Part shown: positions 2,094 through 53,177 of the stretch, piece after piece
Layout: every line of letters begins with the position of its first letter
How positions within the stretch are numbered: the first letter of the stretch is position 1
Origin: Deltaproteobacteria bacterium
Lineage (GTDB): Bacteria; Myxococcota_A; Polyangia; HGW-17
Assembly: GCA_016937155.1 (NCBI GenBank)
Contig: JAFGWM010000053.1
Location: 15,495-79,494, forward strand
DNA: 64,000 nucleotides
Reading direction: 5' to 3'
Notes under the pieces: model-generated
The model's input: only the letters and a program-made list of their open reading frames with translations
Told to the model about the DNA's origin: nothing
Database searches by the model: none
Position numbers and translations under genes: made by a program

Positions 2094-3929
2094 ATGTATT
2101 ACATCTATTTTATCATTTCTTTTGTTACGGCTCTTAACTCAACCACTTATTCTGAGCGTCTTAATGCAGCATATAAAAATAACGAGATCTCATTGAGAGA
2201 GAGGATAGATTTTGCTGAAAATGCCCTTAAAAACCCTAAGCTGCTTCCAGATAAATGGAAAAATATTCTTTATTCAAATCCAGTGATGCCCTGGGAAGGC
2301 ACATCACTGCTGGTTGAAGCATTTCAGTTGAGAATGCTGAATAATCTGAAGGCCGACTATACAATGCCTGCTGAACTGGAATTTCATCTGGACAGCGGAA
2401 ACTATCCAATCAGAGTGTATTATTCCAATGCATCACAGGAACAGCTTGCCCAGAGTGTTCTTCTTGCTGCTGATTACAGCTGGCAAGTGGAAATTGAAGA
2501 GTTTGGTTTTTATGCACCACCTATTGTTACCCCGGAGGGACGTTACAGAATATATATCGCCGACACAGGAATGGGTGGAGGTGGATATACTGCTCCTATC
2601 AGCGATTACCCTGACACCCTCAGAGATGACTGTGTAACTTACATTTACATTGATCCGAGCAATGACCCGATGACATCTGAAGGCGTAGTTGCCCATGAAT
2701 TGAATCACAGTATGCAGGCATCGATGGATTGCATTGAAACTACGGCCTTCTGGGAAAATACTGCCACATATATGATGCTGGCGGTATATCCTGACACTTC
2801 TTACTATGTGGGGTATTTTGCTGAGCCTTTTCAGGGTAATCCCTGGATGAGCCTGAGCGATGGTGGTCAGAATGATTACTACTGGTATGGCGGTTATCTC
2901 TGGCCTTTATGGCTTTCAGAGCATTATACCGGTGATTTTCAGGATGCAACCCTTATAAGGAAAATATGGGAGGATTCGATTCAGGAAAGCAACTTCTCGA
3001 ATAACTCTCCAAATTACATGGAAGCAATTGATTCAAATCTTCAGGCGGATCACAATGAGACCCTTGTGGATGCATTCAGAAAGTTCAATGTTGCCAGATA
3101 CTTCACCGGATACAATTACATAAGCGGCAAAACTGATTTACCCTTCGCCGAGGATGCTTACTATTACCCGGAATACACATCGGTAATATATTTGGATGAA
3201 ACTTTTTCTAAAACGCCTACCACCACTTTACCTAAAAAGTTCGGTGTAAATTATTATCTGATTGGTAATCCCGGAAATTATTCGCGTGAAACTGTGATCC
3301 GACTCACACCTGCCAGAAATCCTGAAGAATGGAGTATGCAGCTGGTTTCCAAGGAGACCGGTGTTGAAAATCTATACTCTTCACCCGCTGATGATGCTCA
3401 CATTATAATTCTGAATCCGTCAGATACGGGTGAAGCAGTTCTGATTGTTGAAAGAAACGGAGGAACAGACTTTGATCCCGATTCAATTGGCAGCTCATCA
3501 AGTTATACTTTGGATGTTTATCCTGAAATACCTCCCCCTGAAATTACGATGATCATGCCTCAAAGCGCTTTTAATGAATCCACAGAAACTGTTTCCGTTT
3601 TTGGAGAAAATTTTGATGAAAATACAGTTTTAACATTCAGTCCAGGAACAGGTATTAGTGTTGAAAACTGTACTCTGGAAGGAACCACAAGGATAAACTG
3701 CACTTTAATAATGGATGAAACTGCTCTTGGCCCTCAGGATGTAGTTATATCAACTGTTCTTGACGAAGTAACTTTAGAAGACGGTTTTACAGTAATGGAG
3801 AATACAGAGACCGATTCATCATCTTCCGGTTGCAGTTGTTCCAGTACTACTTCCGGACCTTTGAAAAACAATATAATTATGATGCCACTGCTTATGCTTA
3901 TGGCATTCATTTTAAGGAGGCGTTTATAA
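2094..3929 (+). CDS. Secreted HExxH zinc-metalloprotease-like protein with IPT/TIG-like domain and Cys-box C-terminal sorting tail (paralog A)
   Basis: 611 aa. N-terminal hydrophobic signal/anchor, HELNH motif (VVAHELNHSMQ), and a late beta-sandwich-like segment (PPPEITMIMPQ...VSVFGENF...). Tail is GCSCSSTTSGPLKNNIIMMPLLMLMAFILRRRL. Confidence 0.7.
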   Translation: MYYIYFIISFVTALNSTTYSERLNAAYKNNEISLRERIDFAENALKNPKLLPDKWKNILYSNPVMPWEGTSLLVEAFQLRMLNNLKADYTMPAELEFHLDSGNYPIRVYYSNASQEQLAQSVLLAADYSWQVEIEEFGFYAPPIVTPEGRYRIYIADTGMGGGGYTAPISDYPDTLRDDCVTYIYIDPSNDPMTSEGVVAHELNHSMQASMDCIETTAFWENTATYMMLAVYPDTSYYVGYFAEPFQGNPWMSLSDGGQNDYYWYGGYLWPLWLSEHYTGDFQDATLIRKIWEDSIQESNFSNNSPNYMEAIDSNLQADHNETLVDAFRKFNVARYFTGYNYISGKTDLPFAEDAYYYPEYTSVIYLDETFSKTPTTTLPKKFGVNYYLIGNPGNYSRETVIRLTPARNPEEWSMQLVSKETGVENLYSSPADDAHIIILNPSDTGEAVLIVERNGGTDFDPDSIGSSSSYTLDVYPEIPPPEITMIMPQSAFNESTETVSVFGENFDENTVLTFSPGTGISVENCTLEGTTRINCTLIMDETALGPQDVVISTVLDEVTLEDGFTVMENTETDSSSSGCSCSSTTSGPLKNNIIMMPLLMLMAFILRRRL

Positions 3930-5746
3930 TGCTGGTGGCAATTCTTATTTTCAGCCTGATTCAGTCAACAACGTGGATTGAAAAGCTGCAGGATGATTTT
4001 TATTCCGGGAAAATATCACTGGATGAAAAACTGGATATACAAAGGAGAGCTGTTGTATCACCAGAGACTCTTCCGGAAAAATGGCGTGAAATTATTAAAA
4101 AATATCCAGCTGAAATGCAGAGTGCAACACCACTACTTGTTGATGCATTCCAAAAATCCAGAATTCCAAAGGCTTACAATATGCCTGATCCTATGGCTTA
4201 TTATCTTGACAGTGTAATATACCCAATCAGGGTTTATTATTATCAGGAAAGTCAACTTGAACTAGCCACCTCGGTTTTAGAAGCTGCAGATGAAAGCTGG
4301 ATGAAAGAAATTGATGAGTTTGGTTTTTATGCACCTCCCATAACAACCCCTGAAGAAAAATATCGGATTTTTATCATGGGTGCCAGCGGTGCCAGTGGCT
4401 ATACTTCACCCATTGGAAGCTATGATGAAACACCATGGGATGATTGTGTCACTTACATAGTAATCGAAGAAAACTCATATCCACAGATGGCCAAATCAAC
4501 TGTAGCACACGAGTTAAGCCATGCCACTCAGGGTGCTATGGATTGCATGGAGCCCGTTGTGTTTTGGGAAAACACAGCAGTATTTACTGAAATTGCTGTT
4601 TATCCTTCAATTATTGGATGGATGAGATATTACGCCCAGTATTTTCAGGAAAGTCCCTGGTGGTCGATAAGTGAAAACGAAACCCCTTACTGGTATGGTG
4701 GTTTTTTATGGCCTCTTTTTCTGGCTGATAAATTCGGCTCAGGACCCCATGATGGAAATTTCGTTCAGGAAATCTGGGAAAGAAGCATGCAGGAAACTGG
4801 AAATTCCACAAATGATCCCAATTATATGGAGACAATTACCGAAATGATAGAGGAAGGAGGCTCAACTCTGGATGAGGCCTTTACTCTTTTCAGTGTAGGA
4901 AGATTTTTTGTAGGAAGTGATACCAGCAGTGGGTATGAAATAATTCCATTCTCGGATCAACTTGATCTCAGTGTTCCAATACAAAAAACAATTTATGTTG
5001 ATGAGGAAACTACATACGAACCACCATCATCAGAAAGACCAAAGCCGTATGGAATAAATTATTTCAGACTCAGAAGCGATTCACTTAACAGACCCACAAC
5101 AATTGAATTAAAGGAAGAATCCGAAGTGAATTCATGGCAGCTTACCCTTGCACCAATAAATGGCTCAATTGAGGATATTATTTCATCTTCTTCAACTGAG
5201 AAGGGTAGTGTATCCATAGAATTTGATCCCTCAGAAACAGGGGATATGTTATTGCTTGTTATTAATAAGGGCAAAGACTCCTTTAGTTTTAATTCCGTGC
5301 CTGTTTATGGAACAGATTATCAGTTGACAGTCAGACCAACAGTTCCCCTTCCGGAAATAAGTACTGTTCTTCCTCAAACTGTTGAAAGTGGAAGTAAAGT
5401 TACCGTGACGGTTTTCGGTTCTGATTTCATTGAAGGTGCAACGGTGGAATTTTTTCCGGCGGATGATATTGAAATTACAAATATAAACTTCATCGACAGC
5501 TCCAAAATGGAAATTACCCTGGTTACACCGGAAGATACCGTTCCCGGAGTGCGTCAGATTACCGTTATCAATCCTGATGAAGGTCAGGGTTCTCTGGCCA
5601 GCGGACTCAACTTTGTTGATCCTGTGAAATACTCCACTCAGCCAGGAAGCGGATGTTCTTCCAGCGGTGAAAATAACTCTTCAGATCCATCTATACTCCT
5701 TATTTTCACGCTGATGACTTTTTTAATATTCAGAAGAAAAATCTGA
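3929..5746 (+). CDS. Secreted HExxH zinc-metalloprotease-like protein with IPT/TIG-like domain and Cys-box C-terminal sorting tail (paralog B)
   Basis: Start re-set to ATG 3929 (TAATG overlap with the upstream stop, AAGGAGG at 3914-3920), giving MLVAILIFSLIQ signal. HELSH motif (TVAHELSHATQ). Collinear similarity to paralog A along the whole length. Tail is GSGCSSSGENNSSDPSILLIFTLMTFLIFRRKI. Confidence 0.7.
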   Translation: MLVAILIFSLIQSTTWIEKLQDDFYSGKISLDEKLDIQRRAVVSPETLPEKWREIIKKYPAEMQSATPLLVDAFQKSRIPKAYNMPDPMAYYLDSVIYPIRVYYYQESQLELATSVLEAADESWMKEIDEFGFYAPPITTPEEKYRIFIMGASGASGYTSPIGSYDETPWDDCVTYIVIEENSYPQMAKSTVAHELSHATQGAMDCMEPVVFWENTAVFTEIAVYPSIIGWMRYYAQYFQESPWWSISENETPYWYGGFLWPLFLADKFGSGPHDGNFVQEIWERSMQETGNSTNDPNYMETITEMIEEGGSTLDEAFTLFSVGRFFVGSDTSSGYEIIPFSDQLDLSVPIQKTIYVDEETTYEPPSSERPKPYGINYFRLRSDSLNRPTTIELKEESEVNSWQLTLAPINGSIEDIISSSSTEKGSVSIEFDPSETGDMLLLVINKGKDSFSFNSVPVYGTDYQLTVRPTVPLPEISTVLPQTVESGSKVTVTVFGSDFIEGATVEFFPADDIEITNINFIDSSKMEITLVTPEDTVPGVRQITVINPDEGQGSLASGLNFVDPVKYSTQPGSGCSSSGENNSSDPSILLIFTLMTFLIFRRKI

Positions 5747-5753
5747 TAAAAAA

Positions 5754-16051: not shown

Positions 16052-16579
16052 ATGAAGTCATCCGGTTTTACAATGATTGAACTATTACTGGTTGTAGTGG
16101 TAATTGGAATTCTTGCTGCCATTGCTATTCCGCAGTTCAATTCCCAGAGTAAAAAAGCCAAGGCCAGTGAAGTTCCGGGAATGTTCACTGCGATCAAAAC
16201 TGCCCAGTTTGCATACAAGAGTGAATATGGGATGTTTCTGTCCACCGGCTCAACTGAAACTGACTTTTACCCGGCTTTACTTTCTTCTGGTGAACCGGTG
16301 AAAAAGAAATGGGAACCTGCTTCATCAAGCAAGTGGGTGGATCTTGGCGTCCAGCCTCCGGATTATCAACTTTACTGTGGTTATGTCACCATTGGCGGAA
16401 GTGCGGGAACTGGTCCTTCTGGCACTCATGGACAGAATATTTTCAGAAACACAGTGCCAACAAAACCATGGTTTTATATAGTCGCTGCCTGTGACCTCGA
16501 TGGCAGACCAACTACAAATACAACATACATTACATCCTCGGATGTTGAAAAAACTGTAACGAGGAATAACGGTAACTGA
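16052..16579 (+). CDS. Type IV pilin / pseudopilin-like protein (prepilin N-terminal methylation motif)
   Basis: 175 aa. MKSSG|[24 protein letters not shown] is a class III signal with G-1, F+1, E+5. Good SD. Confidence 0.85.
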
Positions 16580-16625: not shown

Positions 16626-17183
16626 ATGAAAAAACAGTCAGGTTTCACTCTCATCGAACTTATGATCGTTGTGGCAATTATTGGTATTCTCGCAGCTATC
16701 GCAATCCCTTCATTCCTGAGATATATCTCAACATCCAAAAATGCTGAGGTACCTAACGCTATGAAGGCTCTTTATGATGGTAGTGTTGCTCACTACAGAA
16801 ATCCCAACATCCATGTGGATGCCATTGGTGATGCTATCACCCCTACCTTCCCTGCCACACACGACTGGTCACCAAGTGCTACATGCTGTGATGGTACCAG
16901 ACCTGTTAAATGTGATCCTTCTAATACTGGTAATCCCGGTAGTTATAGTGGTGCAACTGTATGGGAAGAGACCACCTGGACAGAGCTCAATTTCAGAATG
17001 GAGAACAAACACTATTATCAGTATAACTATACCGGAAGTAGTTCCGATACTTTCATAGCTGGAGCTCAGGGCGATCTCGACTGCGATGGAACTTATTCAC
17101 TCTTCCAGAGAAAAGGTACCGTTGATACAGCCACAAATGACATCAAAGGCGCTGATCTTAAACCTGTCCGTCCCGGTGAATAA
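16626..17183 (+). CDS. pilA: Type IV major pilin, PilA-like
   Basis: 185 aa. MKKQSG|[24 protein letters not shown] is the canonical prepilin motif, with Cys pairs in the C-terminal globular part (CC...C, C). Confidence 0.85.
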
Positions 17184-20677: not shown

Positions 20678-20683
20678 TGGAAC

Positions 20684-23446
20684 TCAATTCAGAAAGGATT
20701 GTCTTTTTCTTATCAGGAAAAGACCAACAGCAAATATTACCACTAAAGATAATTCATGTCCCACTGGGGTTTTTGTACCTGGAACATTTTTACAGTGACA
20801 GCCGATTACGGTTTCGGTTTTACAATCATAGTTTTCCTCACAACTGTCAGAATCATTACCAGCATCATCAGCATCGGTCCCTGTATCCTCAGTATCTGTG
20901 CCTGCATCAGGAATTAAAGGAGGATAAACACCAAAATAATCTGTAACTGCTTCCATAATATCTGACTGAATATCCTCTTCGATTATGTTTTCAAATGGAA
21001 ACCCCAGAGTCAGAACTCCACCGGACTCATTTACTTCATAAAGCAGCCCGGCAGTGGTCCCTGATGAAAAAGTAACAACAGTTGATCCATCCGGTAGCGG
21101 AGTGATAACATTCATATCACCAGGATAATACCCCTCACTTTCACCATCATTCAGCGTTGAACCTGAAATTCCAGCAAAAATTCCAGCACCAGACATTCCT
21201 ATACTGAAATCTGTGGTATCAACTGTGTATGATTCCGCACCAATAAAAGCCAGTAGATCATTTCTGCCTGATACATAGAAGTCTTCCAGAAGATTTGAGC
21301 CTGAAATAAACAGATTTCCACCAGTAGCAACATATGTGCTCAAATCATCCCACAGATAATCAGGAAATTCATTTTGTCCTCTACCATTTACTACATCAAT
21401 AAGCTCATATCTGGTCAGATCGACTTCGCCACTGATATATTTCTCCAGGGATATGGTATCAAATACAAGATCATTCCTTCCCAAAGCCCTTGCATGTGAA
21501 GTGAACCCATCTCTGAAATCGTACATTTCACGCAAAAGCATTCGATGAACCAGAGATGTATACCCCAGATCCTGTTTAATATTAAGCGCTTCTCCAAGAG
21601 CAGTAAATGCATCGATTATCAGAATATTCGCACTTCCTGTGGGACTCACCCCGACGGCTACCGGAGGACTTATTATACTTTCACCGCCACTGTTAACGCT
21701 GCTCACCCTGATATATAGAACCTGTCCGGACACAAGACCAGTAAGATCCATAGATGTTTCAGAGGTAAACACACCCTCTCCCCAATCTCTCTCTACAGGA
21801 CTTATATATACTCTATATCCTTCAGGGGCACTACCTCCAACGGGATCCTCCAGTGGAGGATTCCAACTGATCCTGACACCGGATTCAGAATTAAAAACAC
21901 TTACTCCATTTACAGGCTCAGGAGGAAGAACTGCCTGATAACCATCACGCTGTGCAAAATATTTGATAATCGCATGACAAGCCGCCCGCCCTGCAATATA
22001 TCTTTCAGGAGCCCTTCTGTAATAAATCATGTCCTGAGCGCTGTCGTGAAACAGCGCCTCCACAAGTGCTGCAGGAACATCACTGTCATGATAAGACGGA
22101 TTGATTTCTCCGAAGTAGGCGCTTCTAACACCACGGTCATACCATGGATTTTCATAGTGAACATTGAATGCGCTAACCATCTGGCTTTGAACAAGTGCTG
22201 CAAACTCATCACTTCCTGCCGTTCCCATCCCAGGAGTATATGTTCCATCCGGGGGATTTGATGAATAAACATAGGTTGAAGTACCCCGTCCACCACCTGC
22301 GTTTGTATGCCATGAGAAATAAACACTGTCTTCACCGGTTTCATGAATCCAGGCGGCAAGTCTTGATCGGCAACTTACATCATCATTATTATCCTCACTT
22401 GATGAATTCCAGACTGTGGAGGGCGCACCTGAAAACTGGGCATGATAACGACAGCATTCTTCATATCTGGGTTTCTGACTGGTGCCACCCCCTCTGTCCC
22501 ACAAACCCCTTCCACCACCAATACGAACCGCATCCAGACTAACCTGTGCGTTTGATGAACTGTATTCGCTGTCATTTGCAACCGCAATACTGCCGATTGA
22601 TGAATTTACTCCCTTTTTGAACCAGAACCGTCCCAGTAAAACCCATGTTGCGCCATGATGTCTCTGATCAACCCTGAAATGAGTCTGTCCCCCGGGATGG
22701 TTCACGATATAGTGAGCATCCGGAGCACGCTCTGAGTAGGATGTATAACTGATATAGACATTATAATAGGAACTGACGGGCACGTTAAAGGTGTAAACAG
22801 CCCTCGCTGTTTCCTGAGCAGAAGTATCCATAAGTCTGTTGGTTCCCTCTTCAAAGGGATTCGTACCGTCAGACAGTGGTGGTTCAACCCAGCCGAATGA
22901 TTGAAGAGAGCTATTTGAAAAAAGTCCCGAGTCCCCTGTTTCAATATATGTCCCTCTGTCAGGATTTGCCTCCATATCATCGTTATCTACAACCACCATA
23001 AAATCCGTGAGATCAATTTCTCTTACAGGCACCACATATGCACCACTTCTCCAGAGACAAGGCACCAGAAACTGGTTAACTGTCTCCGCATTTGATAAAT
23101 CCTCAACAACACCTTCACTGAGTCCCCTTTGAGTGGTCCATCTGGTTCCTGTCCAGTACCATCCATGACCTGGTGAAACATAAATACTTTTTCCGGCAAG
23201 AGCCCCCTCATCAGAAGAAAACAACGATTTTGAAAATTCAGGACGAACTCGTCTGACGACTGAACCGACTCTCTGGTCTGGTCTTTCCCATGGTCTTTGA
23301 GGAACTTTATCAAGTCCTTCCACTCCTCTGATATTTTCACCTGCAAGCCCTGTAATATCAGCATTTTTATCTGCCACACTGCTTGTGCTGTCAAAAATAA
23401 ACGAAAAAATAATAATAACCGAAAATAATGAAAGGATTGTTTTCAT
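20684..23446 (-). CDS. Secreted N-acetylmuramoyl-L-alanine amidase-like (Amidase_3-type, split by a large insert) protein with FN3 domain, alpha/beta C-terminal domain and Cys-box sorting tail
   Basis: Start set to MKTILSLFSVIII (ATG 23446, GGGAG upstream). Amidase_3-like blocks YVSPGHGWYW, FSWHTNAGGGRGTSTYVY, ALVEALFHDSAQD. FN3-like GVRISWNPP...GYRVYISP...YIRVSSVN. Tail is GCHCKNVPGTKTPVGHELSLVVIFAVGLFLIRKRQ. Confidence 0.6.
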   Translation of the reverse strand: MKTILSLFSVIIIFSFIFDSTSSVADKNADITGLAGENIRGVEGLDKVPQRPWERPDQRVGSVVRRVRPEFSKSLFSSDEGALAGKSIYVSPGHGWYWTGTRWTTQRGLSEGVVEDLSNAETVNQFLVPCLWRSGAYVVPVREIDLTDFMVVVDNDDMEANPDRGTYIETGDSGLFSNSSLQSFGWVEPPLSDGTNPFEEGTNRLMDTSAQETARAVYTFNVPVSSYYNVYISYTSYSERAPDAHYIVNHPGGQTHFRVDQRHHGATWVLLGRFWFKKGVNSSIGSIAVANDSEYSSSNAQVSLDAVRIGGGRGLWDRGGGTSQKPRYEECCRYHAQFSGAPSTVWNSSSEDNNDDVSCRSRLAAWIHETGEDSVYFSWHTNAGGGRGTSTYVYSSNPPDGTYTPGMGTAGSDEFAALVQSQMVSAFNVHYENPWYDRGVRSAYFGEINPSYHDSDVPAALVEALFHDSAQDMIYYRRAPERYIAGRAACHAIIKYFAQRDGYQAVLPPEPVNGVSVFNSESGVRISWNPPLEDPVGGSAPEGYRVYISPVERDWGEGVFTSETSMDLTGLVSGQVLYIRVSSVNSGGESIISPPVAVGVSPTGSANILIIDAFTALGEALNIKQDLGYTSLVHRMLLREMYDFRDGFTSHARALGRNDLVFDTISLEKYISGEVDLTRYELIDVVNGRGQNEFPDYLWDDLSTYVATGGNLFISGSNLLEDFYVSGRNDLLAFIGAESYTVDTTDFSIGMSGAGIFAGISGSTLNDGESEGYYPGDMNVITPLPDGSTVVTFSSGTTAGLLYEVNESGGVLTLGFPFENIIEEDIQSDIMEAVTDYFGVYPPLIPDAGTDTEDTGTDADDAGNDSDSCEENYDCKTETVIGCHCKNVPGTKTPVGHELSLVVIFAVGLFLIRKRQSFLN

Positions 23447-33546: not shown

Positions 33547-34914
33547 CTACTTTTTTTTCGTTTCCCATGCAGGCATAGACAACTTTCCAGACAATACAAG
33601 TCTCGAACTTCCACCTTGAACTGGACTTAAGCGAATACCTGCTGCAGCTGTTTTACTACCTGCACTTTCATAGGCCAGAAGGTTGCAATGCGGGCTCCAG
33701 GTGGGATTCTCGGCATTCGGAGCGCTTGTGGATGTTGCCTGCCAGCCTGCTCGTGTTAAAACATTGTAGATATAAATTACACTACGATTACCTACCAGTT
33801 GTGTAAATGCAATATATTCACGATTTCCCGATTTACACCATTTAGGAGTGAATGTTCTGTTCGATGTGCTTAACAAACGTGTAATTTTTCCAGTACTCAG
33901 ATGCTTGATGTATATCTGAGCATTTCCCCTTCTGGCACTTACGAATGCTATTTTTTTCCCATCAGGGGAAAAGACCGGGGATGTATCTATATTGTGGTGT
34001 TTGGTAAGTTTCTTTGCAACTCTCCATTTTCTTGTGGAATTAAACTCCGAATGCAGAAGATATATATCTGGATTTCCCTTATAATCCATTGTAAGTGCCA
34101 GCCTTGTATTATCAGGACTGAATGCTGCGGCATGATTCATACCTTTTCTTGCACTGATTCGATGAGGACTTTTTGAACCATCACTCTTAACAATGTACAA
34201 ATCAGGGTTATACCTTATGTGAGAAGTAAAAACGATGTACCGGTTACCATTACTCCAGGCTGGTTCCTTGTTGAGACTTCGTGAAAAACTAAGAAGTTTT
34301 CCATAAGAGCCTGCTGTTTTGTATGACTTACCGTTTACTGCGGATACTCTGATTACTGACTTGCCTACACTCAAAGTTTCCACATAGGCCAGACGGCTAC
34401 CAAACGCATCAAATTTTCGTCCCAGTATCTTTGCCATACACTGATTAGAAATTGCATCAAGGGCATTTCTTAATGTTGTTTCATTCTGATGTCTGATTTT
34501 TAAGTTAGTTTTCCATTTCAAAATACTTTTTCTGGAATGAGAAGGAAAACGCTCATGATATTCAATTCTGAAATCAATTCCTGTGCCATTTTTCAAAGCA
34601 TCAATTTTTATCACTGACCATCTGGGTATCTGATCCACAGGAGTTGATGATTTATATCCACGAGGTTTATATGATTTCTTTAATTTAAATATTGCAGTCA
34701 TATCAAAATTATTAGTCATATGTTCCACAAGTATTTTCCTGGCCTTGGTATCCAGATTTCCCGTCTTAAAATCCAGGACCAGATAATGGGGAGGGGGGGG
34801 TGGACAAAAACAAAGCTGTCCTGCTGGACAATTGGGAATTGGACACTGAACAGCCCTGACTTTGGGAGAAAATGACACAGCAAAAATAAAAAGGAAAGAG
34901 GTCAAATATTTCAT
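33547..34914 (-). CDS. tolB: Tol-Pal system beta-propeller protein TolB
   Basis: 455 aa. Repeated SPDG/SPDN...IAF/LAL...GN.(Q/D)IY propeller blades. Position after tolQRA. Unusual Cys/Pro-rich N-terminal insert. Confidence 0.85.
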   Translation of the reverse strand: MKYLTSFLFIFAVSFSPKVRAVQCPIPNCPAGQLCFCPPPPPHYLVLDFKTGNLDTKARKILVEHMTNNFDMTAIFKLKKSYKPRGYKSSTPVDQIPRWSVIKIDALKNGTGIDFRIEYHERFPSHSRKSILKWKTNLKIRHQNETTLRNALDAISNQCMAKILGRKFDAFGSRLAYVETLSVGKSVIRVSAVNGKSYKTAGSYGKLLSFSRSLNKEPAWSNGNRYIVFTSHIRYNPDLYIVKSDGSKSPHRISARKGMNHAAAFSPDNTRLALTMDYKGNPDIYLLHSEFNSTRKWRVAKKLTKHHNIDTSPVFSPDGKKIAFVSARRGNAQIYIKHLSTGKITRLLSTSNRTFTPKWCKSGNREYIAFTQLVGNRSVIYIYNVLTRAGWQATSTSAPNAENPTWSPHCNLLAYESAGSKTAAAGIRLSPVQGGSSRLVLSGKLSMPAWETKKK

Positions 34915-35831
34915 TTTTTATCCTTCGCACTCTGAATAGAGCCAGATTTTAAATCCGATTTATCTGATTTCATATCTGAACTACTATTTAGTTTAATAAT
35001 TGATTCGGTTTTTTTAACTTTCCGCGCACCAATGGTAACAGGAAAAACGCATCCTCTTGAAACCGCACAGGCACTTACCCTAGATGAAGGTAGTACTCTG
35101 AGAGTTCTGCTGACGGCCTTTTGAATAGCATTATCAAAAGTGGTATTTCCACTTTTTTTCAAAAATCCGTGCAATCTTACACTCCCACTTGAATCCACTC
35201 TGACACTTATAGTGGCAGCAAGAAAGGTATCCCCCCCGAAAGAAAGCGTTATTCTACCCAGTTGGCTGTATACAGCCTGTCTCACCCCCGGGCAGAAAGT
35301 GGATTTCATTTCTGTCAAAGCTTGTGCCGTACAGGGATCCTCTTTTTCACACGGAGGATTAGGGCATCCTGATTTTTTTTCAGTTGTGTTATTGTTTGTT
35401 TCTCCCGGAGTACCTTTGGAATCATCAGTATTTTTTGAACAGCATTTGGCACAAATCTTTGCTTCAGCCAGACATGGCGAACACGAGCTTTCATCAAAAA
35501 GACTGCAATCGGTATCTTCTGCATGAGGCATTTTTTCAGGATTTTTCTTATGTGTTTTTCTGGTTATAGTGGGTCTGGGATTATGCTTAATTATTTTTTT
35601 TTCTTTTTTAATCTTTTCAGTTTTTTCAGTTTTTTCAGGGGACGGCAAATTTTCCGGTTCCCTCTCAGTTATAATACTTACAGGCAAAGGGTTTTCGATT
35701 GGATTTTTCGGTTTTTTTTCAGCAGAAGAAAATAAAATCATCCACAGTACAGCAAGAATATGGATTGCTATTGCGATTACCGCACTGGTCAGATGCTCAT
35801 ATTTTGGCCTGTCAAGAACCGATGCAGTCAT
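34911..35831 (-). CDS. tolA: TolA-like (TonB-family C-terminal domain) protein with Cys-rich linker
   Basis: N-terminal anchor AVIAIAIHILAVLWMILF, Lys/Glu/Pro linker (EKTEKTEKIKKEKK), 10 Cys in about 75 aa, TonB_C-like end. ATGA-type overlaps with both neighbours. Confidence 0.65.
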   Translation of the reverse strand: MTASVLDRPKYEHLTSAVIAIAIHILAVLWMILFSSAEKKPKNPIENPLPVSIITEREPENLPSPEKTEKTEKIKKEKKIIKHNPRPTITRKTHKKNPEKMPHAEDTDCSLFDESSCSPCLAEAKICAKCCSKNTDDSKGTPGETNNNTTEKKSGCPNPPCEKEDPCTAQALTEMKSTFCPGVRQAVYSQLGRITLSFGGDTFLAATISVRVDSSGSVRLHGFLKKSGNTTFDNAIQKAVSRTLRVLPSSRVSACAVSRGCVFPVTIGARKVKKTESIIKLNSSSDMKSDKSDLKSGSIQSAKDKK

Positions 35832-36259
35832 TTTTTCTCACCATCAGGCTTTGTAGAAGTCATAAGACCTATTCCTTTTATACCGGCTTTCCTCACGGCA
35901 ACAAGTAATTCCATCACTTTCTGGTACTTCAGATTTTTGTCAGCACGTACATTGGCTTCGTTCGTACCGGGAAAAGCGGACTTTAGTGTACCCTCCAAAC
36001 CGTTCAAATCTGTTTCAATCCTTTTCCCTTCACCCATTGTTAATACAACCTTTTCATCAAACCCCATAAAAATTGTTAACTTGTCACGATTCCCCGGCAC
36101 AGGAGCCCCTTTTGTCTCAGGAAGTTCCAGATTAATTCCTGCAGGTTCAACGGGACTGGTAACCATAAAAATAATCATTAGAACCATCATAACATCAATA
36201 AGGGGAGTCAAATTCATATCGGCAATTGGCCTGGAACTAGGGTCATAATTAAGATTCAT
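35828..36259 (-). CDS. tolR: TolR / ExbD-family protein
   Basis: 143 aa. IADMNLTPLIDVMMVLMIIFMV signature. Confidence 0.88.
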   Translation of the reverse strand: MNLNYDPSSRPIADMNLTPLIDVMMVLMIIFMVTSPVEPAGINLELPETKGAPVPGNRDKLTIFMGFDEKVVLTMGEGKRIETDLNGLEGTLKSAFPGTNEANVRADKNLKYQKVMELLVAVRKAGIKGIGLMTSTKPDGEKK

Positions 36260-36268
36260 AGCTTCCTC

Positions 36269-36964
36269 TTATTGAAAAAACTTTCTCTGGGCAATATTCA
36301 AAAAGTCGTTTGCAAACGTTTCCATGTCAGCCACATGTAATCTTACTTTCCGAAGAAAATAATTATAGGCTATTGTTGCCGGAATAGCCGCAATAAGTCC
36401 CAGAGCCGTTGTAACAAGCGCATCAACTATACCGGGAGCAACAGTCGCCAGAGTTGTATTACCAGTGATCCCTATGGCACTGAAGGAAACCATGATTCCC
36501 CAAACTGTTCCGAAAAGACCAAGAAATGGTGCTGTTGCACTGATAGTTGCCATTACCGGAAGCATACCCTCAAGCCGGGTAATCTCAACCATTGCTGATT
36601 TTTTAAGAGCTCTCTCAAGATTCTGAAGATCCCCTCTATCATCTCCCTGCTCCCTGTTTCTGGATTTCAGTCTGGCCAGTTCCTTATAACCGGCAATAAA
36701 AACCTGACTTATGGGACCTCGTGGATTCTCCTCTGCTACTTTATATATCTGATCAAGATTTCCACCCCCCCAAAAAGCATCCAAAAAAACTTTATTGGAC
36801 TTCAATGCCCTGTAATAGAATATTCCTTTGTAAACAATAGCATACCATGTAACTATACTGAATGCGAAGAGAACAATAAGATCAACAAGAACCATTCCTC
36901 TGGAATTAAGTATCATATCAACCAGATTAATAGTCTGTGCCTTTGCCAGAAATATTTGTTCCAT
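36269..36964 (-). CDS. tolQ: TolQ / ExbB / MotA-family proton channel protein
   Basis: 231 aa. ISATAPFLGLFGTVWGIM and GIVDALVTTALGLIAAIPA blocks. Confidence 0.9.
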   Translation of the reverse strand: MEQIFLAKAQTINLVDMILNSRGMVLVDLIVLFAFSIVTWYAIVYKGIFYYRALKSNKVFLDAFWGGGNLDQIYKVAEENPRGPISQVFIAGYKELARLKSRNREQGDDRGDLQNLERALKKSAMVEITRLEGMLPVMATISATAPFLGLFGTVWGIMVSFSAIGITGNTTLATVAPGIVDALVTTALGLIAAIPATIAYNYFLRKVRLHVADMETFANDFLNIAQRKFFQ

Positions 36965-39295: not shown

Positions 39296-40405
39296 ATGGA
39301 AGAGAAAATCTGGAAAATCGATTTTGAAACCCTTGAAAAGTTTATGTCAGACGTGTTCAGTTCGTGCGGCGTTCCAAAAAATGAAGCCGAAGTTTGTGCA
39401 AGAGTGCTCATTACAAGTGATAAACGTGGAATTGAAAGCCACGGCATAGGCCGTATGAAAACAATATATTACGACCGCATAAAAAAGGGAATTCAATCCC
39501 CTGTAACAAAATTTGAAATAGTTTCGGAGACACCCACTACTGCAGTTATAGATGGCAATCATGGTATGGGGCATGTAATCTCCACACGGGCTATGGAAAT
39601 GGCTATTGAAAAGGCTAAGACAAACGGCCTTGGCATGACAGCAGTCCGTAACAGCACACATTACGGAATATGCGGGTACTATCTGCTTATGGCAGCAGAG
39701 GCCGGAATGATTGGAATAACGGGAACAAACGCCAGACCCTCTATTGCACCAACTTTTGGTGTTGAAAATATGCTTGGAACCAATCCTCTGGCTCTAGGAT
39801 GTCCTACTGATGAGGATTTTCCTTTTATTCTCGATGCTGCAACGAGTGTAAGCCAGAGGGGAAAAATTGAGGTTTATTCAAGAGCAGAAAAGGATATTCC
39901 AGAAGGTTGGGTAATTGACAGAAGTGGAAACTATAGAACTGATACTCAACAGATTCTGAAGGATCTTGTTAGTGGAGATGCTGCTCTCGTAGCTCTAGGC
40001 GGTATGGGTGAAGAAACCGGGGGACATAAAGGATATGGATATGCAACATTTGTGGAAATTCTGAGCAGTGCACTTTCAAACGGCAGTTATATGAAACAGC
40101 TTCTGGGATTTGAAAACGGTAAACCTGTTCCATACAAACTTGGACATTTTTTCATGGCCATCAATATTGAGAATTTTATTCCACTGCCGATTTTTAAGGC
40201 TACTGCAGGTAGTATTTTACGACAGTTGAGAAATTCTGATAAAGCTCCGGGGCAGGAGAGAATATACACTGCCGGAGAGAAAGAACATCTTATGTGGCTT
40301 GAAAGAAGCAAAACAGGCGTCCCAATAAATTCAAATCTTTCAGTTGAGCTTGATATCATGCGAAAAGAATGCAGCCTTGACAATTACATCTTCCCCTGGG
40401 ATTAA
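39296..40405 (+). CDS. Ldh_2-family (malate/L-lactate/ureidoglycolate-type) dehydrogenase
   Basis: 369 aa. Family-typical SHGIGRM, NSTHYG, TNPLALG, GGHKGYG blocks. AGGAG RBS. Confidence 0.8.
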   Translation: MEEKIWKIDFETLEKFMSDVFSSCGVPKNEAEVCARVLITSDKRGIESHGIGRMKTIYYDRIKKGIQSPVTKFEIVSETPTTAVIDGNHGMGHVISTRAMEMAIEKAKTNGLGMTAVRNSTHYGICGYYLLMAAEAGMIGITGTNARPSIAPTFGVENMLGTNPLALGCPTDEDFPFILDAATSVSQRGKIEVYSRAEKDIPEGWVIDRSGNYRTDTQQILKDLVSGDAALVALGGMGEETGGHKGYGYATFVEILSSALSNGSYMKQLLGFENGKPVPYKLGHFFMAINIENFIPLPIFKATAGSILRQLRNSDKAPGQERIYTAGEKEHLMWLERSKTGVPINSNLSVELDIMRKECSLDNYIFPWD

Positions 40406-44487: not shown

Positions 44488-45186
44488 CTATTTAAAAGTA
44501 CAGGTACCAGCACTGCCAAGATTTTCTTCAAGAAGGTAATCACAGGAATCAGTGGTTCCAGTGACATAAATATCATTACAGGTAAGTTCCAGAGCCTCAA
44601 CACTCAGAGCTTCAGCACAGAAACTGAGATCTTCAAGTAAAACTTCGTCTTCAGCATAAGATGCATACTCATCAAGACATGTGGTTGCAGTTGTACAGTC
44701 GTCATAGCATCCTTCAAGCCAGTCAGCATAATAGTCACATACTATATAACCGCAGTCTTCAGCACAGTTTATTTCATCCTCGTCAGTATCACAGGTTTCG
44801 TCACCACAATAGCTTGCAACAACACAGTCAGCAGGGCATGTTTCTTCATCCTCGTCAGTATCACAGGTTCCATCGCCACAGTATGGATCTACAGTACAAA
44901 CTACACCAAGATAATCAACGCCCAGATCAACACATTCCTGTACAGTGGTACTCCAGTCGGCACATCCTGCACTTACAATGATGTCACTGCATTCATCAAG
45001 GTCCATCTGGATATCAACCGGGAGATCAAGATAGTTGTCTTCACATGCGACACTCACTGAACAGTTATCACAGCTTGAAAGCCATGCGTCATAATTGTCA
45101 CATGTGATTACAGCATCCGAAGTATCTTCACAGCTGATTACAAACATAGAAAGCAAAAGTGAACCAATAAGCATAAATCTCTTCAT
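44488..45186 (-). CDS. Acidic Cys-rich lipoprotein with duplicated CGD(G/E)TCDTDEDE-x2-C-x2-DC module
   Basis: 232 aa. Signal with lipobox VISC. Many Cys and Asp/Glu. PYCGDGTCDTDEDEETCPADC and SYCGDETCDTDEDEINCAEDC in tandem. Confidence 0.6.
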   Translation of the reverse strand: MKRFMLIGSLLLSMFVISCEDTSDAVITCDNYDAWLSSCDNCSVSVACEDNYLDLPVDIQMDLDECSDIIVSAGCADWSTTVQECVDLGVDYLGVVCTVDPYCGDGTCDTDEDEETCPADCVVASYCGDETCDTDEDEINCAEDCGYIVCDYYADWLEGCYDDCTTATTCLDEYASYAEDEVLLEDLSFCAEALSVEALELTCNDIYVTGTTDSCDYLLEENLGSAGTCTFK

Positions 45187-45306: not shown

Positions 45307-47334
45307 TTAAAACAACTTCCGAAAGAGCAAAAGAAAGACTCCTAACATCATAAGTAGTGTATTACCGGCAATTTGCCTGTTGTCACCAGCGTTATTACAT
45401 GAGCATCCTGTATCTTCAGATGTTGTATCACTCATTGAATAAGCATCAACGTAGTAACACAAAGTAAGAGAAGCGCAATCAGGGTCATCACAATCAACCT
45501 TGCCGTCACCGTCATCATCAATATAATTCAAACAATTCTCACCGGCTACATTCTCACAATATACACTGGACTGACAGTCAGCATCTTCACAGTCAGTGAA
45601 GCCGTCACCATCGTTATCATTTCCGTCCATACACATTTCTTTTCTGGGAGCACAAAGCGATGAAGAAATACATTTCACATCATCACAATCAACCCGACCA
45701 TTTCCGTCATCATCTACACCATTTCCGCAGACCTCTTTAACACTGTTGCATAGTGCTGTAGCGAAACAGTCGGCATCATCACAGTCAGCCTTCATATCTC
45801 CATCGTCATCGATGTAGTTATCACAGATTTCAGTACGAGTTGTACAAACCTGATTAAAGAAGCAATCGGCATCATCACAGTCAACCGCATTGTCACCATC
45901 ATCATCAATACCATTGTCACAGATTTCAATGTCTTCAGCTATACAGTTCATCGCTGTTTCGCAATTTGGGTCATCACAATCAGTCAAACCATCAAGATCA
46001 TCGTCAATATTATTATCACAAACTTCTGTTGTAGGGCTGGTACCCTGACAGGTTATTGTAAGAGTATAGGCACCAGGATTTTCATAAGTTTCCACGAAAA
46101 GATAACTGGTAAGACCATCTGTTGTAAATGTCAGAGATTCCTGAACTCCAGCATTGTTTAAGGATGAATCCACACATGATGTAGGAGAACAACTGCCTTT
46201 AATAAGCAAAAGATCCAAATCCAGACTCGAACCTGACAAATTCAAAGTGGCAGTTACAACTGTTCCCGAAGGAACTCCAACCCTGTAAACATTTTCCGGG
46301 CCGCTTTCACTATAACCGTTTGTACACACATCAGGATAACCTGTATAAGCATTCCCTCCAGTGACTGTTGTCCCTGAAACTGTGTCACCACAGGAAATAT
46401 CCGTTTTCATAGAACAGGCATCGATAATGCAGTCACTTGATGTGGCACAGTCTGAGTCATCGCAATCCACATCCCCGTCTCCATCATCATCAGTACCATT
46501 GGAGCAATCCTCAAAATCACTTCCGGTAATCCCATTTATAAAAGAAGAAAATTTATCCACTTTTGTACTCACACCAAAATAATCACATTCATCATAAGAG
46601 TTGAGAAGCACATATGATGACACCCCTGCCACGTATTCGCTACCACCTCTGGTAACAAAAGCAGGACCTCCACTGTCACCGGAACATATTCCGCCATCGG
46701 TATCCATCCTTATTCCCAGCGTTGAGGGCGGCATATTAACATATCCCACACCTGAAATATTGTATGAACACTGGGAAGAGCCGTCACAGATAGCAACCGG
46801 CGGTCTGGTGATTGTAAGTTTCGTACCACTGGAACCGGTTTCGGTAACACCAAACCCTACGTACTGAAGAGGAGTGACATTAACATCACTGCTTGTAATA
46901 GCACTGGCTGGAGGCAGAGGCGGTATAGGAGTGACACTTGATGGAGCTGAGGAGCTCAGTGTAAGTACTGATATATCATTTGTAAGTGCAGATTCATCAT
47001 ATGAAGGATGCACTGTAACAGCACTTACATTTCTTGAGTCCCAGAAACCGCCATTCACAGTGTTTCCGAAAAGAACCTGCATACTTGATGGAGAGCTTGC
47101 ACAGTGTCCTGCTGTGAGTACATGGTAGGGAGTAATGAGAGTTCCTGTGCAGGCACTTCCGTATCCCCCACCGGCATCAATTTCAATGTAAACAACTGCC
47201 TGGTGTTCAGTTGAAGTATCGGGTTCTCCGTACAAAATGTACCCATCAATGTACACAATCCCCTTTTGTTCCTCATGAGTGCATGAAAACATAACTGACT
47301 GAATTAAAAGAATAAAAATTGATATATACTTCAT
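45307..47334 (-). CDS. Trypsin-like (S1) serine protease lipoprotein with PPC-like domain, 7 Cys/Asp-rich repeats and Cys-box sorting tail (paralog 1)
   Basis: Lipobox VMFSC. Triad contexts LTAGHC, NDISVLTL, GDSGGPAF. PPC-like ...LDLDLLLIKG...YTLTITC. Repeats C-x-N-G-x-DDDGD-x3-DC-x-D-x-DC. Tail GCSCNNAGDNRQIAGNTLLMMLGVFLLLFRKLF. Confidence 0.8.
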   Translation of the reverse strand: MKYISIFILLIQSVMFSCTHEEQKGIVYIDGYILYGEPDTSTEHQAVVYIEIDAGGGYGSACTGTLITPYHVLTAGHCASSPSSMQVLFGNTVNGGFWDSRNVSAVTVHPSYDESALTNDISVLTLSSSAPSSVTPIPPLPPASAITSSDVNVTPLQYVGFGVTETGSSGTKLTITRPPVAICDGSSQCSYNISGVGYVNMPPSTLGIRMDTDGGICSGDSGGPAFVTRGGSEYVAGVSSYVLLNSYDECDYFGVSTKVDKFSSFINGITGSDFEDCSNGTDDDGDGDVDCDDSDCATSSDCIIDACSMKTDISCGDTVSGTTVTGGNAYTGYPDVCTNGYSESGPENVYRVGVPSGTVVTATLNLSGSSLDLDLLLIKGSCSPTSCVDSSLNNAGVQESLTFTTDGLTSYLFVETYENPGAYTLTITCQGTSPTTEVCDNNIDDDLDGLTDCDDPNCETAMNCIAEDIEICDNGIDDDGDNAVDCDDADCFFNQVCTTRTEICDNYIDDDGDMKADCDDADCFATALCNSVKEVCGNGVDDDGNGRVDCDDVKCISSSLCAPRKEMCMDGNDNDGDGFTDCEDADCQSSVYCENVAGENCLNYIDDDGDGKVDCDDPDCASLTLCYYVDAYSMSDTTSEDTGCSCNNAGDNRQIAGNTLLMMLGVFLLLFRKLF
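45457..46020 (-). repeat. Array of six ~31-34-codon Cys/Asp-rich coding repeats in protease paralog 1
   Basis: CDNNIDDDLDGLTDCDDPNC, CDNGIDDDGDNAVDCDDADC, CDNYIDDDGDMKADCDDADC, CGNGVDDDGNGRVDCDDVKC, CMDGNDNDGDGFTDCEDADC, CLNYIDDDGDGKVDCDDPDC. Confidence 0.85.
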
Positions 47335-48951: not shown

Positions 48952-48964
48952 AAACGCCAGGAAA

Positions 48965-50974: not shown

Positions 50975-51035
50975 GGGGGGCACCATAATTGAAAAAAAAT
51001 GAAAATAAAACCGGAAAATCTCTATCCTCAGCTTG

Positions 51036-51041
51036 TATAAT
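51036..51041 (+). promoter_or_regulatory. Candidate -10 hexamer (TATAAT, preceded by TG) for protease paralog 2
   Basis: cTTGTATAATg lies 46 nt upstream of ATG 51087. No convincing -35. Confidence 0.3.
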
Positions 51042-51086
51042 GCCCGAAGGTGTGGAAAATTGTCAAAAGTTGAAAAGGAGTGTGAC

Positions 51087-53177
51087 ATGAAAAACATTTT
51101 TTCTTCGGTTATTTTCCTGACTTTTCTTTCATTTTTTGCGTCATGCCAGGAAAATCAACCATTAAACACTGAAACAATATCCACCAACAGACCGATATTT
51201 TATGGTGATCCTGACACCAGCACAGCACATAAAGCAGTCGTTTATCTTGAATCGAATACAGGATTTTCATGCACTGGAACTGTCATTGCACCTACGTGGG
51301 TACTCACCGCAGGACACTGTGTTGAGGGCGTTAGCAGCATAGATGTGAAGATAGGAAATTCAAGTTATTCTTATGATTACTCAGTCGCAAGTGTAGATAT
51401 AATACAGCATCCCAACTATGTGGGAACAAGTCAGAACATATACAACGACATTGCACTGATTGAGCTTGAATCTGATGTATCCTCAGTTCTCAATCCTATT
51501 CCAATTTTACCTCCTTCACTTGCCATCTCTGATTCTGATGAAAGAAGCACAATGCTTGAATTTGTAGGGTACGGATTGACTGAAACATATTCAAGTGGAG
51601 TGAAACTTACAGTTGATCACGTTCTCGGAGATCAGTGCTCATCCTCAAACTATTGTAGCATCCAGACTTCACCTTACAGCATACCACCAGGAAGTATAAG
51701 TTATGGACAAAATGGCGGAGGTCCCTGCAGTGGTGACAGTGGAGGTCCTGCATTCGTTGTGAGATCAGGTACTGAGTATGTCGCCGGAGTAACCAGTTAC
51801 GGTGATGAGGACTGTCTGGTTTATGGTGTATCAACAAAAGTTGATTACTTTTATAATTGGATTACTTCATATACAGGAACAACAACATCCACCGAGAACT
51901 GTACCAATGGCACTGATGACGATGGAGACGGGGCTGTGGATTGCAGTGACAGTGATTGTTTTTCAAATTCTGCATGCCAGACAACTGAGAATGCCTGTGG
52001 AAACACAATCACTTTAGGCTGTGGAGACAGCGTATCCTCTTCAACTGCAACCGGAGCTTATACCGCTTATACTTCCTATAATTGCCTTGATGGTTGGACA
52101 GAAGATGGTCCTGAGCGGATTTATGAGTTACTTCTGAATACCGGGGCAGATGTCACAATTACCCTGAGCAGCGGTTCCACAAATGATCTTGATTTGCTTA
52201 TCCTTGAGGGAAATTGTGATACAAACTCGTGTGCTACTGGAAGTGTAGAGGATGCCGGCGTGGACGAGGTACTTTCTTTCCCTTATGACGGTTCATCAAC
52301 ATTATATGCAGTTGTTGAAACATTTCAGAATGCAGGTGATTTCACACTTACAGTAGAATGCGACGGTGGTGAAGTTCAGGAAAACTGCACTAACGGAACT
52401 GATGATGACGGTGACAATATGGTGGACTGTAATGATCCTGATTGTTCACAGCATTCAAACTGCACTACAACAGGAGAAAACTGTACCAACGGTGTTGATG
52501 ATGATGGTGACAATATGGTGGACTGCAATGATCCTGATTGTCAGACAAATGCCAACTGTATAACAAATCCTGAAAACTGCACTAATGGAGTTGATGATGA
52601 CGGCGATGGAGCTGTTGACTGTGATGATGCTGACTGTGTAACTCTCAGTTCATGTACTGAAAGAGTTGAAGACTGTACCAATGGTATTGATGATGATGGT
52701 GATGGGGCTGCTGACTGTGACGATGTTGACTGTGCAAACAATGCCAACTGCTCAGGTACTATCTCAGAAAACTGTTCAAACGGTATTGACGACGACGGTG
52801 ATGCAAAAATTGACTGCAATGACAGTGACTGCAGAACTTTCAGTGCATGTCAGGCACCTGTTGAAATCTGTTACAACGGTACTGATGATGATGGCGACGG
52901 ACTAACTGACTGTAATGACAGTGACTGTGCCTCCTATGTTGGATGTGGAATGAGCGGTGGTGAAATATGCTATAACGGTATTGATGATGATGGCGACGGT
53001 AAGACAGACTGTGGAGACAGTGATTGTGCAAGTTACTCAAAATGCAGCAATTACAATTCCTCTAGCGATGACGGTGGCTGTTCTTGTTCAAATGCCGGTT
53101 CAAACGTACCCCCTGAAAATTATTTTTTCATTATCATTCTTCTTATAGGATTGGCATCCACAAGAAAACTCATCTGA
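51087..53177 (+). CDS. Trypsin-like (S1) serine protease lipoprotein with PPC-like domain, 8 Cys/Asp-rich repeats and Cys-box sorting tail (paralog 2)
   Basis: Start set to MKNIFSSVIF (ATG 51087, AAAGGAG upstream). Lipobox FFASC. LTAGHC, NDIALIEL, GDSGGPAF. PPC-like ...NDLDLLILEG...FTLTVEC. Tail GGCSCSNAGSNVPPENYFFIIILLIGLASTRKLI. Confidence 0.8.
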   Translation: MKNIFSSVIFLTFLSFFASCQENQPLNTETISTNRPIFYGDPDTSTAHKAVVYLESNTGFSCTGTVIAPTWVLTAGHCVEGVSSIDVKIGNSSYSYDYSVASVDIIQHPNYVGTSQNIYNDIALIELESDVSSVLNPIPILPPSLAISDSDERSTMLEFVGYGLTETYSSGVKLTVDHVLGDQCSSSNYCSIQTSPYSIPPGSISYGQNGGGPCSGDSGGPAFVVRSGTEYVAGVTSYGDEDCLVYGVSTKVDYFYNWITSYTGTTTSTENCTNGTDDDGDGAVDCSDSDCFSNSACQTTENACGNTITLGCGDSVSSSTATGAYTAYTSYNCLDGWTEDGPERIYELLLNTGADVTITLSSGSTNDLDLLILEGNCDTNSCATGSVEDAGVDEVLSFPYDGSSTLYAVVETFQNAGDFTLTVECDGGEVQENCTNGTDDDGDNMVDCNDPDCSQHSNCTTTGENCTNGVDDDGDNMVDCNDPDCQTNANCITNPENCTNGVDDDGDGAVDCDDADCVTLSSCTERVEDCTNGIDDDGDGAADCDDVDCANNANCSGTISENCSNGIDDDGDAKIDCNDSDCRTFSACQAPVEICYNGTDDDGDGLTDCNDSDCASYVGCGMSGGEICYNGIDDDGDGKTDCGDSDCASYSKCSNYNSSSDDGGCSCSNAGSNVPPENYFFIIILLIGLASTRKLI
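52386..53045 (+). repeat. Array of seven ~31-33-codon Cys/Asp-rich coding repeats in protease paralog 2
   Basis: CTNGTDDDGDNMVDCNDPDC, CTNGVDDDGDNMVDCNDPDC, CTNGVDDDGDGAVDCDDADC, CTNGIDDDGDGAADCDDVDC, CSNGIDDDGDAKIDCNDSDC, CYNGTDDDGDGLTDCNDSDC, CYNGIDDDGDGKTDCGDSDC. The first two units share long identical nucleotide runs. Confidence 0.9.

Follow-up and report, generated by a model that had tools for sequence, protein, structure and literature searches.

Five large hydrolases of three unrelated families, all encoded within one 64-kb stretch of DNA from an uncultured member of the Myxococcota, end with variants of the same short C-terminal tail, which raises the question of whether these tails are protein-sorting signals and, if so, to which system they belong. 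The stretch (hereafter, the window) comprises 64,000 nucleotides, positions 15,495 to 79,494 of contig JAFGWM010000053.1 in assembly GCA_016937155.1, and has a guanine plus cytosine (GC) content of 39.5%; the contig as a whole measures 145,099 bp. The original prediction, made from the sequence without database searches, likened the tails of the five proteins, denoted here carriers 1 to 5, to the MYXO-CTERM tag of Myxococcus. This likeness is borne out by relatives of the Myxococcota type, some of whose orthologous tails pass the curated MYXO-CTERM model, and very probably, the five tails represent a low-GC form of the MYXO-CTERM sorting signal that belongs to an uncultured lineage of Myxococcota. 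The system itself is a known one found in an uncultured lineage: the pathway, which involves MrtX, MrtC or MrtP together with type II secretion, has already been published and tested experimentally in M. xanthus.

The MYXO-CTERM region spans about 34 residues, is highly divergent and contains one invariant Cys, to which a second Cys nearby is frequently added (GCGC type); no single hidden Markov model (HMM) covers it across lineages, and species-specific iterative models are needed (Haft, bioRxiv 10.1101/2023.06.07.544157). The cognate proteases, MrtX, MrtC and MrtP, belong to the CPBP family and have a common core, NF040914 (Haft, bioRxiv 10.1101/2023.06.07.544157). MrtX cuts the tag in M. 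xanthus and in Escherichia coli, the Cys residues of the tag are required, and surface exposure of the substrates depends on the type II secretion system (Guo, Haft and Wall, mBio 2025, PMC11980579). The tag and mrtX orthologues are found throughout the Myxococcota; the 35 substrates of M. xanthus are mostly adhesins and hydrolases, and their domains (Table S1 of that work) include trypsin-like serine protease, zinc metalloprotease, MurNAc-LAA amidase and FN3 (PMC11980579).

Five hydrolases with a tripartite C-terminal tail

The tail consists of a Cys box, a polar spacer, a hydrophobic helix and a basic cluster. A regular expression that encodes this architecture ([GSTD]-C, a spacer, 12-22 uncharged residues and two basic residues at most 8 residues from the end) was applied to all stop-to-stop open reading frames (ORFs) of at least 100 amino acids on both strands of the window, and retrieved exactly five ORFs, the same five carriers that had been singled out originally. 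The carriers and their tails are the following.

Carrier 1: 2094-3929, plus strand; MXAN_6640-like HExxH / DUF6055 metalloprotease of 611 amino acids
Tail of carrier 1: 3816-3926, plus strand; SSSSGCSCSSTTSGPLKNNIIMMPLLMLMAFILRRRL, with GCSCS, spacer, helix and RRRL
Carrier 2: 3929-5746, plus strand; MXAN_6640-like HExxH / DUF6055 metalloprotease of 605 amino acids, a tandem paralogue of carrier 1 (36% identity)
Tail of carrier 2: 5645-5743, plus strand; GSGCSSSGENNSSDPSILLIFTLMTFLIFRRKI, of the form GSGCSSSG...DP...RRKI, with a single Cys
Carrier 3: 45307-47334, minus strand; trypsin-family serine protease of 675 amino acids with a PPC domain and 7 acidic double-disulfide repeats (NF033662)
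Tail of carrier 3: 45310-45420, minus strand; SEDTGCSCNNAGDNRQIAGNTLLMMLGVFLLLFRKLF, of the form GCSCN...FRKLF
Carrier 4: 51087-53177, plus strand; trypsin-family serine protease of 696 amino acids with 8 acidic double-disulfide repeats (NF033662)
Tail of carrier 4: 53073-53174, plus strand; GGCSCSNAGSNVPPENYFFIIILLIGLASTRKLI, of the form GGCSCS...TRKLI
Carrier 5: 20684-23446, minus strand; Golvesin_C, fn3 and Amidase_3-like protein of about 920 amino acids from the ATG at 23446 (the ORF is open to 23482)
Tail of carrier 5: 20687-20812, minus strand; TVIGCHCKNVPGTKTPVGHELSLVVIFAVGLFLIRKRQSFLN, with IGCHCK, a 13-residue spacer, helix and RKRQSFLN

Four of the tails translate as originally read, give or take one or two starting residues, but the range first assigned to the fifth, 20687-20810, is wrong: it spans 124 bases, which is not a multiple of three, and is therefore out of frame, and the reading omitted the final SFLN of a tail that ends ...LIRKRQSFLN. 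When the last 50 residues of 104 ORFs were shuffled in 500 rounds, the regular expression matched 0.046 C-termini on average and 2 at most, compared to the 5 observed, and an origin of the tails by chance or from low-complexity sequence is rejected.

The Cys motif is GCSC in carriers 1, 3 and 4, GCHC in carrier 5, and GC with a single Cys in carrier 2; carriers 3 and 4 have in common the longer box GCSC(N/S)NAG, the GCSC core of which is also present in carrier 1. The helices of carriers 2, 3 and 4 are free of charged residues and proline.

The enzymatic classes proposed at the outset, namely two metalloproteases, two serine proteases and one amidase-like protein, agree with the domain matches, with the proviso that the Amidase_3 match of carrier 5 is sub-threshold (22 bits against 27). 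In carrier 1, the Pfam family DUF6055 is matched above threshold and NF045524 below it. At 3927-3931, one nucleotide is common to the stop codon that ends carrier 1 and the ATG that opens carrier 2, and because of this overlap the two genes are predicted to be co-transcribed and translationally coupled. Carriers 3 and 4 are 43% identical over the whole length, including the tail. Five carriers among some 50 genes amount to a high local density, which is in part due to the two pairs of paralogues, one in tandem (carriers 1 and 2) and the other 4 kb apart (carriers 3 and 4).

By inspection of the translations, all five carriers possess a hydrophobic N-terminal leader, which lacks a basic n-region in carriers 1 and 2 and ends in a Cys, a possible lipobox, in carriers 3 (VMFSC) and 4 (FFASC). 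The latter two proteins may thus be lipid-anchored at both ends, through the N-terminal lipobox Cys and the C-terminal tag. The gene directly downstream of carrier 3 (44488-45186, minus strand) encodes a very acidic, Cys-rich protein of 232 amino acids that also has a lipoprotein-type leader (FVISC) and yields no Pfam hit.

Conservation of the tail in relatives of carriers 1 and 2

A search of a collection of 5.8 billion proteins with carrier 1 yielded 28 proteins, the named ones coming from metagenome-assembled genomes (MAGs) labelled 'Myxococcota bacterium', from HGW-Deltaproteobacteria-22 and from a Polyangia MAG; one entry (P0020) is carrier 2 itself, and one homologue (P0016) bears the JGI name 'MYXO-CTERM domain-containing protein'. 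Scanning one genome for each GTDB species with a profile identified 34 loci, nearly all of them labelled Myxococcota, Polyangia, Haliangium, Kofleriaceae or Deltaproteobacteria MAGs. The local GC content across the loci of the carrier family ranges from 0.40 to 0.70. The closest relative (57% identity) is encoded on contig JAHJMN010000093 of MAG Old_saline.mb.39 (GCA_018821305.1, 41% GC), which also has in common with the left end of the window the gene order ThiH, ThiG and two DUF6055 genes. The lineage had been described as unusual, which holds for its GC content but not otherwise: judged by these relatives, it belongs to the Myxococcota, a phylum for which both the tag and its protease are reported to be universal (PMC11980579).

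Of the homologues of carrier 1, the 24 whose C-terminus is intact (within the range P0002-P0026; from genomes of 40-70% GC) all have the same tail of Cys box, transmembrane helix and Arg cluster, in the form G-C-(S/T/A)-x-(S/G), spacer, helix and Arg-rich cluster. When 29 tails are aligned, conservation reaches 90% or more at the Gly, the Cys and the first Arg alone, and the spacer and the helix vary freely.

The curated models were applied with their own cut-offs, namely 20 bits for the MYXO-CTERM model TIGR03901.2, 15.85 for TIGR03382, 27 for JDVT-CTERM (NF033191) and 15.5 for GlyGly-CTERM. No family is matched by more tails than TIGR03901.2, with 22 of the 29 at E <= 10. Five of the orthologous tails pass it (P0006, 35.4 bits; P0004, 28.2; P0014, 24.5; P0003, 24.3; P0016, 20.2), two remain just under the cut-off (P0018, 19.1; P0019, 14.4), and the low-GC-style tails of P0002, P0008 and P0026 do not match this model; the scores are thus graded with composition. 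The syntenic orthologue of carrier 2 in Old_saline.mb.39 (locus L001, 9074-10897), whose tail is DDGGCSSSGTRSTSFPTILFVLFGLLFAVRRRIFL, also passes, with 21.2 bits.

A tail HMM was built from the 24 homologue tails from outside the window only, and ranked against the C-termini of 299 window ORFs. The top four are carriers 2 (18.7 bits), 4 (15.1), 3 (11.3) and 1 (8.7), with E values from 2e-5 to 0.025, and the next ORF scores 4.3 bits. Homologues of carriers 3 and 4 were not found in the loci gathered from the relatives. Taken together, these comparisons make a strong case for carriers 1 to 4 as predicted bearers of a sorting tag.

Another gene of the window has relatives at the same loci. The minus-strand gene at 59247-61814 encodes a Cys-rich protein of 855 amino acids with a lipoprotein-type leader (VFGC) and repeated DUF4215-like units, which ends in ...APGTSGCY without a helix after the Gly-Cys. 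Because its homologues (40-46% identity) recur within a few kb of DUF6055 carriers in at least seven loci of the relatives (among them L004, L005, L008, L009 and L011), a conserved partnership of this protein with the DUF6055 carriers is suggested.

The search for the sorting protease

No sorting enzyme had been noticed in the window, and none came to light there. The M. xanthus MrtX sequence, which was obtained by matching a published primer to GTDB genomes, retrieved nothing by tblastn in the window (best E value, 5.7) or in the carrier loci of the relatives, and a regular expression for the myxosortase motifs found no match in the window or in 36 loci of the relatives. The polytopic membrane proteins of the window, all scanned against Pfam, NCBIfam or both, are a histidine kinase, an MFS/POT transporter, MlaE, homologues of TolQ and TolR, a putative glycosyltransferase and three proteins without family hits; there is no CPBP, rhomboid or exosortase protein among them.

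Outside the window, the best 120 matches of MrtX in the set of 5.8 billion proteins all come from Myxococcaceae. A profile search of 1.84 billion representatives gave 1977 matches, and the ten that are most low-GC-like by composition all pass the Mrt_core model. The MAGs of interest are not among the best 80 of more than 421 matches in a myxosortase profile scan of GTDB; a codon-biased DNA pattern scan of GTDB gave, among the matches listed, mostly generic CPBP genes and none from these MAGs; and a search of proteins with a low-GC Mrt profile (8000 candidates scored) yielded no link to them.

A protease gene next to a gene with a similar tail is found on a Logan contig of 42% GC (L257, 7650-10780). 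The protease encoded there (P0185) passes Mrt_core with 132 bits against a cut-off of 100, and lies 188 bp from a divergent ORF of 720 amino acids that ends in NAGGCALVSNETRSLTLIMWLLLGLFIIRKRK, a tail of the GGC...RKRK type; such placement of a protease beside its substrate is reported for Anaeromyxobacter (PMC11980579). This tail, which is of the low-GC style of the window tails, has no TIGR03901 match, so that the failure of a generic model is not evidence against membership at low GC.

Several further observations concern myxosortase-family genes. Two low-GC members, P0350 and P0357 (L252, 7413-11301; L254, 7121-11294), have their gene neighbourhood in common: an endonuclease III-like gene lies to one side, and a radical-SAM protein, an ORF of about 60 amino acids and a TPR protein are encoded to the other. 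P0303, a CPBP protein of 228 amino acids from a Myxococcota MAG, bears the NCBI name 'JDVT-CTERM system glutamic-type intramembrane protease', a name that probably reflects cross-matching among Mrt family members, because JDVT-CTERM is reported never to occur in Myxococcota (PMC11980579). A tblastn comparison of the ORFs of the window and of its relatives with the Mrt-bearing loci produced one notable match: the Ldh_2-family dehydrogenase gene of the window (39296-40405, plus strand) is 68.7% identical to a gene of locus L055 (2491-3615). This locus comes from a MAG of 52% GC with the label Oligoflexales (AS08sgBPME_423), and 2.4 kb separate the gene from a member of the myxosortase family; none of the other L055 genes resembles the window.

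Points against the assignment and alternative explanations

Several results weigh against the assignment of the tails to MYXO-CTERM. None of the five window tails reaches the cut-off of any curated NCBIfam sorting-signal model: carrier 1, the best of them, has only 8.9 bits on TIGR03901.2 and 7.9 on TIGR03382, carriers 2 to 5 have no match to a MYXO-CTERM model, and the best match of the carrier 2 tail is JDVT-CTERM, with 23.4 bits. The helix of carrier 1 contains one Pro (IIMMPLLMLMAFIL), which is listed as atypical at this position by Haft. Carrier 5 scores at background on the family tail HMM (4.0 bits), and homologues of this protein were found neither in the loci of the relatives nor in JGI metagenomes. 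Finally, among the myxosortase matches listed, none is tied to Old_saline.mb.39 or to the other low-GC relatives.

Failure of the tails on the sorting-signal HMMs had been put forward as grounds for refutation. All five tails do fall below the curated cut-offs, but this does not amount to a valid refutation because a single HMM cannot cover lineage-specific forms and because the syntenic orthologue of carrier 2 passes. The low scores are in line with amino-acid drift at low GC content, and despite a Pro in its helix (LLLPLLFFVL), one orthologous tail reaches 28 bits on the MYXO-CTERM model.

The alternative that fares best concerns carrier 5 alone, which could lie outside the system as a plain membrane anchor with a CxC nearby by chance. 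Because the tail HMMs place carrier 5 at background and no homologues were found, its assignment is based on the architecture of the tail. A second tail HMM, enriched in low-GC tails, ranks carrier 5 fifth, with 5.8 bits (E = 0.21), which is again within the background; this tail has a longer spacer, the helix starts with His-Glu, and six further residues follow the basic cluster. Conversely, the G-C-x-C box is at the same distance from the helix of 16 residues, which is followed by RKR, the regular expression finds no further ORF of this kind in the window, and a MurNAc-LAA amidase is among the MYXO-CTERM substrates of M. xanthus (PMC11980579). Exclusion of carrier 5 is a real possibility that nevertheless appears somewhat unlikely.

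A second, unlikely alternative is that the low-GC clade, which includes this contig, Old_saline.mb.39, 20BLK6-1.bin.28 and GH18, possesses a separately evolved signal that is recognized by a myxosortase subtype outside MrtX, MrtC and MrtP, with trypsin-like proteases that are possibly lipid-anchored at both ends. The low-GC form of the signal may consist of a G-C-S-C box, an Asn/Ser-rich spacer, a helix of Ile, Phe and Met, and a mixed Arg/Lys cluster.

The tails could also be plain, unprocessed transmembrane anchors that hold periplasm-facing hydrolases in the inner membrane, with a Cys box that is incidental or forms disulfides. This explanation would accommodate the sub-cut-off scores of the window tails, the abundance of Cys in the carriers (acidic double-disulfide repeats) and the absence of a protease gene nearby in the window. 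Nonetheless, it appears very unlikely, given that the G-C box is nearly invariant in the 29 aligned tails, where the spacer and helix are free to vary, that orthologous tails pass the MYXO-CTERM model, and that one architecture of box, helix and basic cluster is attached to three unrelated enzyme families in one window, which points to a portable signal.

Membership in another Cys- or Gly-type system, either JDVT-CTERM cut by MrtJ or GlyGly-CTERM cut by rhombosortase (as in the trypsin-like VesB of Vibrio cholerae), is the least probable of the alternatives: the single Cys, the DP just before the helix and the JDVT-CTERM score of carrier 2 are offset by the shortfall of that score from the cut-off of 27, by the lack of JDVT-CTERM matches for the other window tails and of an adjacent CPBP/MrtJ gene in the window, by the reported absence of this system from Myxococcota (PMC11980579) and by the orthologue of carrier 2, which lacks the DP and passes MYXO-CTERM instead, whereas the orthologous tail P0006, which reaches the GlyGly-CTERM cut-off (17.1 bits against 15.5), scores twice as high on MYXO-CTERM. 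At E <= 10, none of the five window tails matches GlyGly-CTERM (TIGR03501) or PEP-CTERM (TIGR02595); the one match of carrier 3 is weak and concerns the C-terminus of a model of a myxosortase-dependent phytase, and carriers 4 and 5 match none of the curated sorting-signal models. With scores below the cut-offs or no matches, and with the cognate enzymes (a rhomboid or an exosortase included) not found in the window, the assignment of the window tails to JDVT-CTERM, GlyGly-CTERM or PEP-CTERM is rejected.

The putative sorting route and its cargo

If the five tails are MYXO-CTERM signals, the route of the carriers can be outlined by analogy with M. xanthus. The enzyme would be exported through Sec by means of its N-terminal leader and then retained in the inner membrane by the C-terminal helix, with the Arg/Lys cluster on the cytoplasmic side. 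The Cys of the G-C-x-C box would probably be lipidated, and the helix would be cut off after this Cys by a myxosortase of the Mrt_core type (a glutamic intramembrane protease of the CPBP family), the gene for which most likely lies elsewhere in the genome. Delivery of the enzyme to the cell surface would then depend on type II secretion, and the modified C-terminus would serve as the anchor there.

The cargo encoded in the window, two metalloproteases, two trypsin-like proteases and one amidase-like protein, is of the kind that is usual for MYXO-CTERM. The proposal of surface display for these hydrolases gains from the analogy with the MYXO-CTERM substrates of M. xanthus, which span the same enzyme classes (PMC11980579).

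Other genes of the window

Two prepilin-type (N-methyl) genes of the pilin or pseudopilin kind (Pfam N_methyl) lie between carriers 2 and 5.

16052-16579, plus strand; prepilin-type pilin/pseudopilin gene
16626-17183, plus strand; prepilin-type pilin/pseudopilin gene

Both have sub-threshold N-terminal NCBIfam matches to myxobacterial PilA and GspG, and may be part of a type II secretion or a type IV pilus system, with a connection to the sorting pathway as no more than a possibility. A gene for a type II secretion system F protein (PF00482) is present on the contig of a relative. At 33547-36964 on the minus strand, there is a Tol-Pal-like row of genes that encode MotA/TolQ, ExbD/TolR, a TonB_2-domain protein and a PD40 beta-propeller (TolB-like) protein.

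Implications and comparison with known systems

The main value of these observations is in annotation. TIGR03901.2 misses all five genuine-looking tags in a Myxococcota window of about 40% GC, as well as tags in related MAGs, and automated pipelines accordingly under-count surface-anchored hydrolases in such genomes. The lineage would display proteases and an amidase-like enzyme for cell walls at the cell surface, in agreement with a predatory or degradative lifestyle. No new mechanism is opened, given that the tag, the protease and the secretion route are published and partly tested in M. xanthus.

Among the known systems, the closest is MYXO-CTERM with its myxosortase, which acts on TraA and some 34 other substrates in M. 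xanthus. As in that system, the window tails are tripartite, with an invariant Cys and often a C-x-C after the Gly, the host belongs to the Myxococcota, and orthologous tails pass the curated model. In both cases, the cargo includes secreted proteases, an amidase or amidase-like protein and adhesin-like proteins, and the protease gene, which is distant from most substrates in the MYXO-CTERM system, is likewise missing from the window. The low GC content sets the window tails apart in composition from typical MYXO-CTERM: the basic clusters mix Lys with Arg (RRKI, RKLF, RKLI, RKRQ), Ile, Phe and Met prevail in the helix in place of Leu, Ala and Gly, and Asn and Ser are abundant in the spacer. 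The scores are 0-9 bits against the cut-off of 20.

The JDVT-CTERM/MrtJ system (NF033191, NF033192) similarly involves a Cys-containing tripartite tail, which is cut by a close relative of myxosortase, and carrier 2 resembles it in the single Cys and the DP before the helix. It is, however, a two-gene cassette of beta- and gamma-proteobacteria, in which the JDVT-CTERM protein adjoins MrtJ in 16 of 17 cases (Haft, bioRxiv 10.1101/2023.06.07.544157), whereas the window has no adjacent protease, comes from a Myxococcota host and encodes two Cys residues in four of the five tails. In GlyGly-CTERM/rhombosortase, exemplified by VesB of V. cholerae, the signature is Gly-Gly rather than Cys and the protease is a rhomboid serine protease. 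LPXTG/sortase A and PEP-CTERM/exosortase have in common with the window tails the general logic of a motif, a helix and a basic cluster, but their motifs, enzymes and attachment chemistry are unrelated, and the window tails yield no matches to their models.

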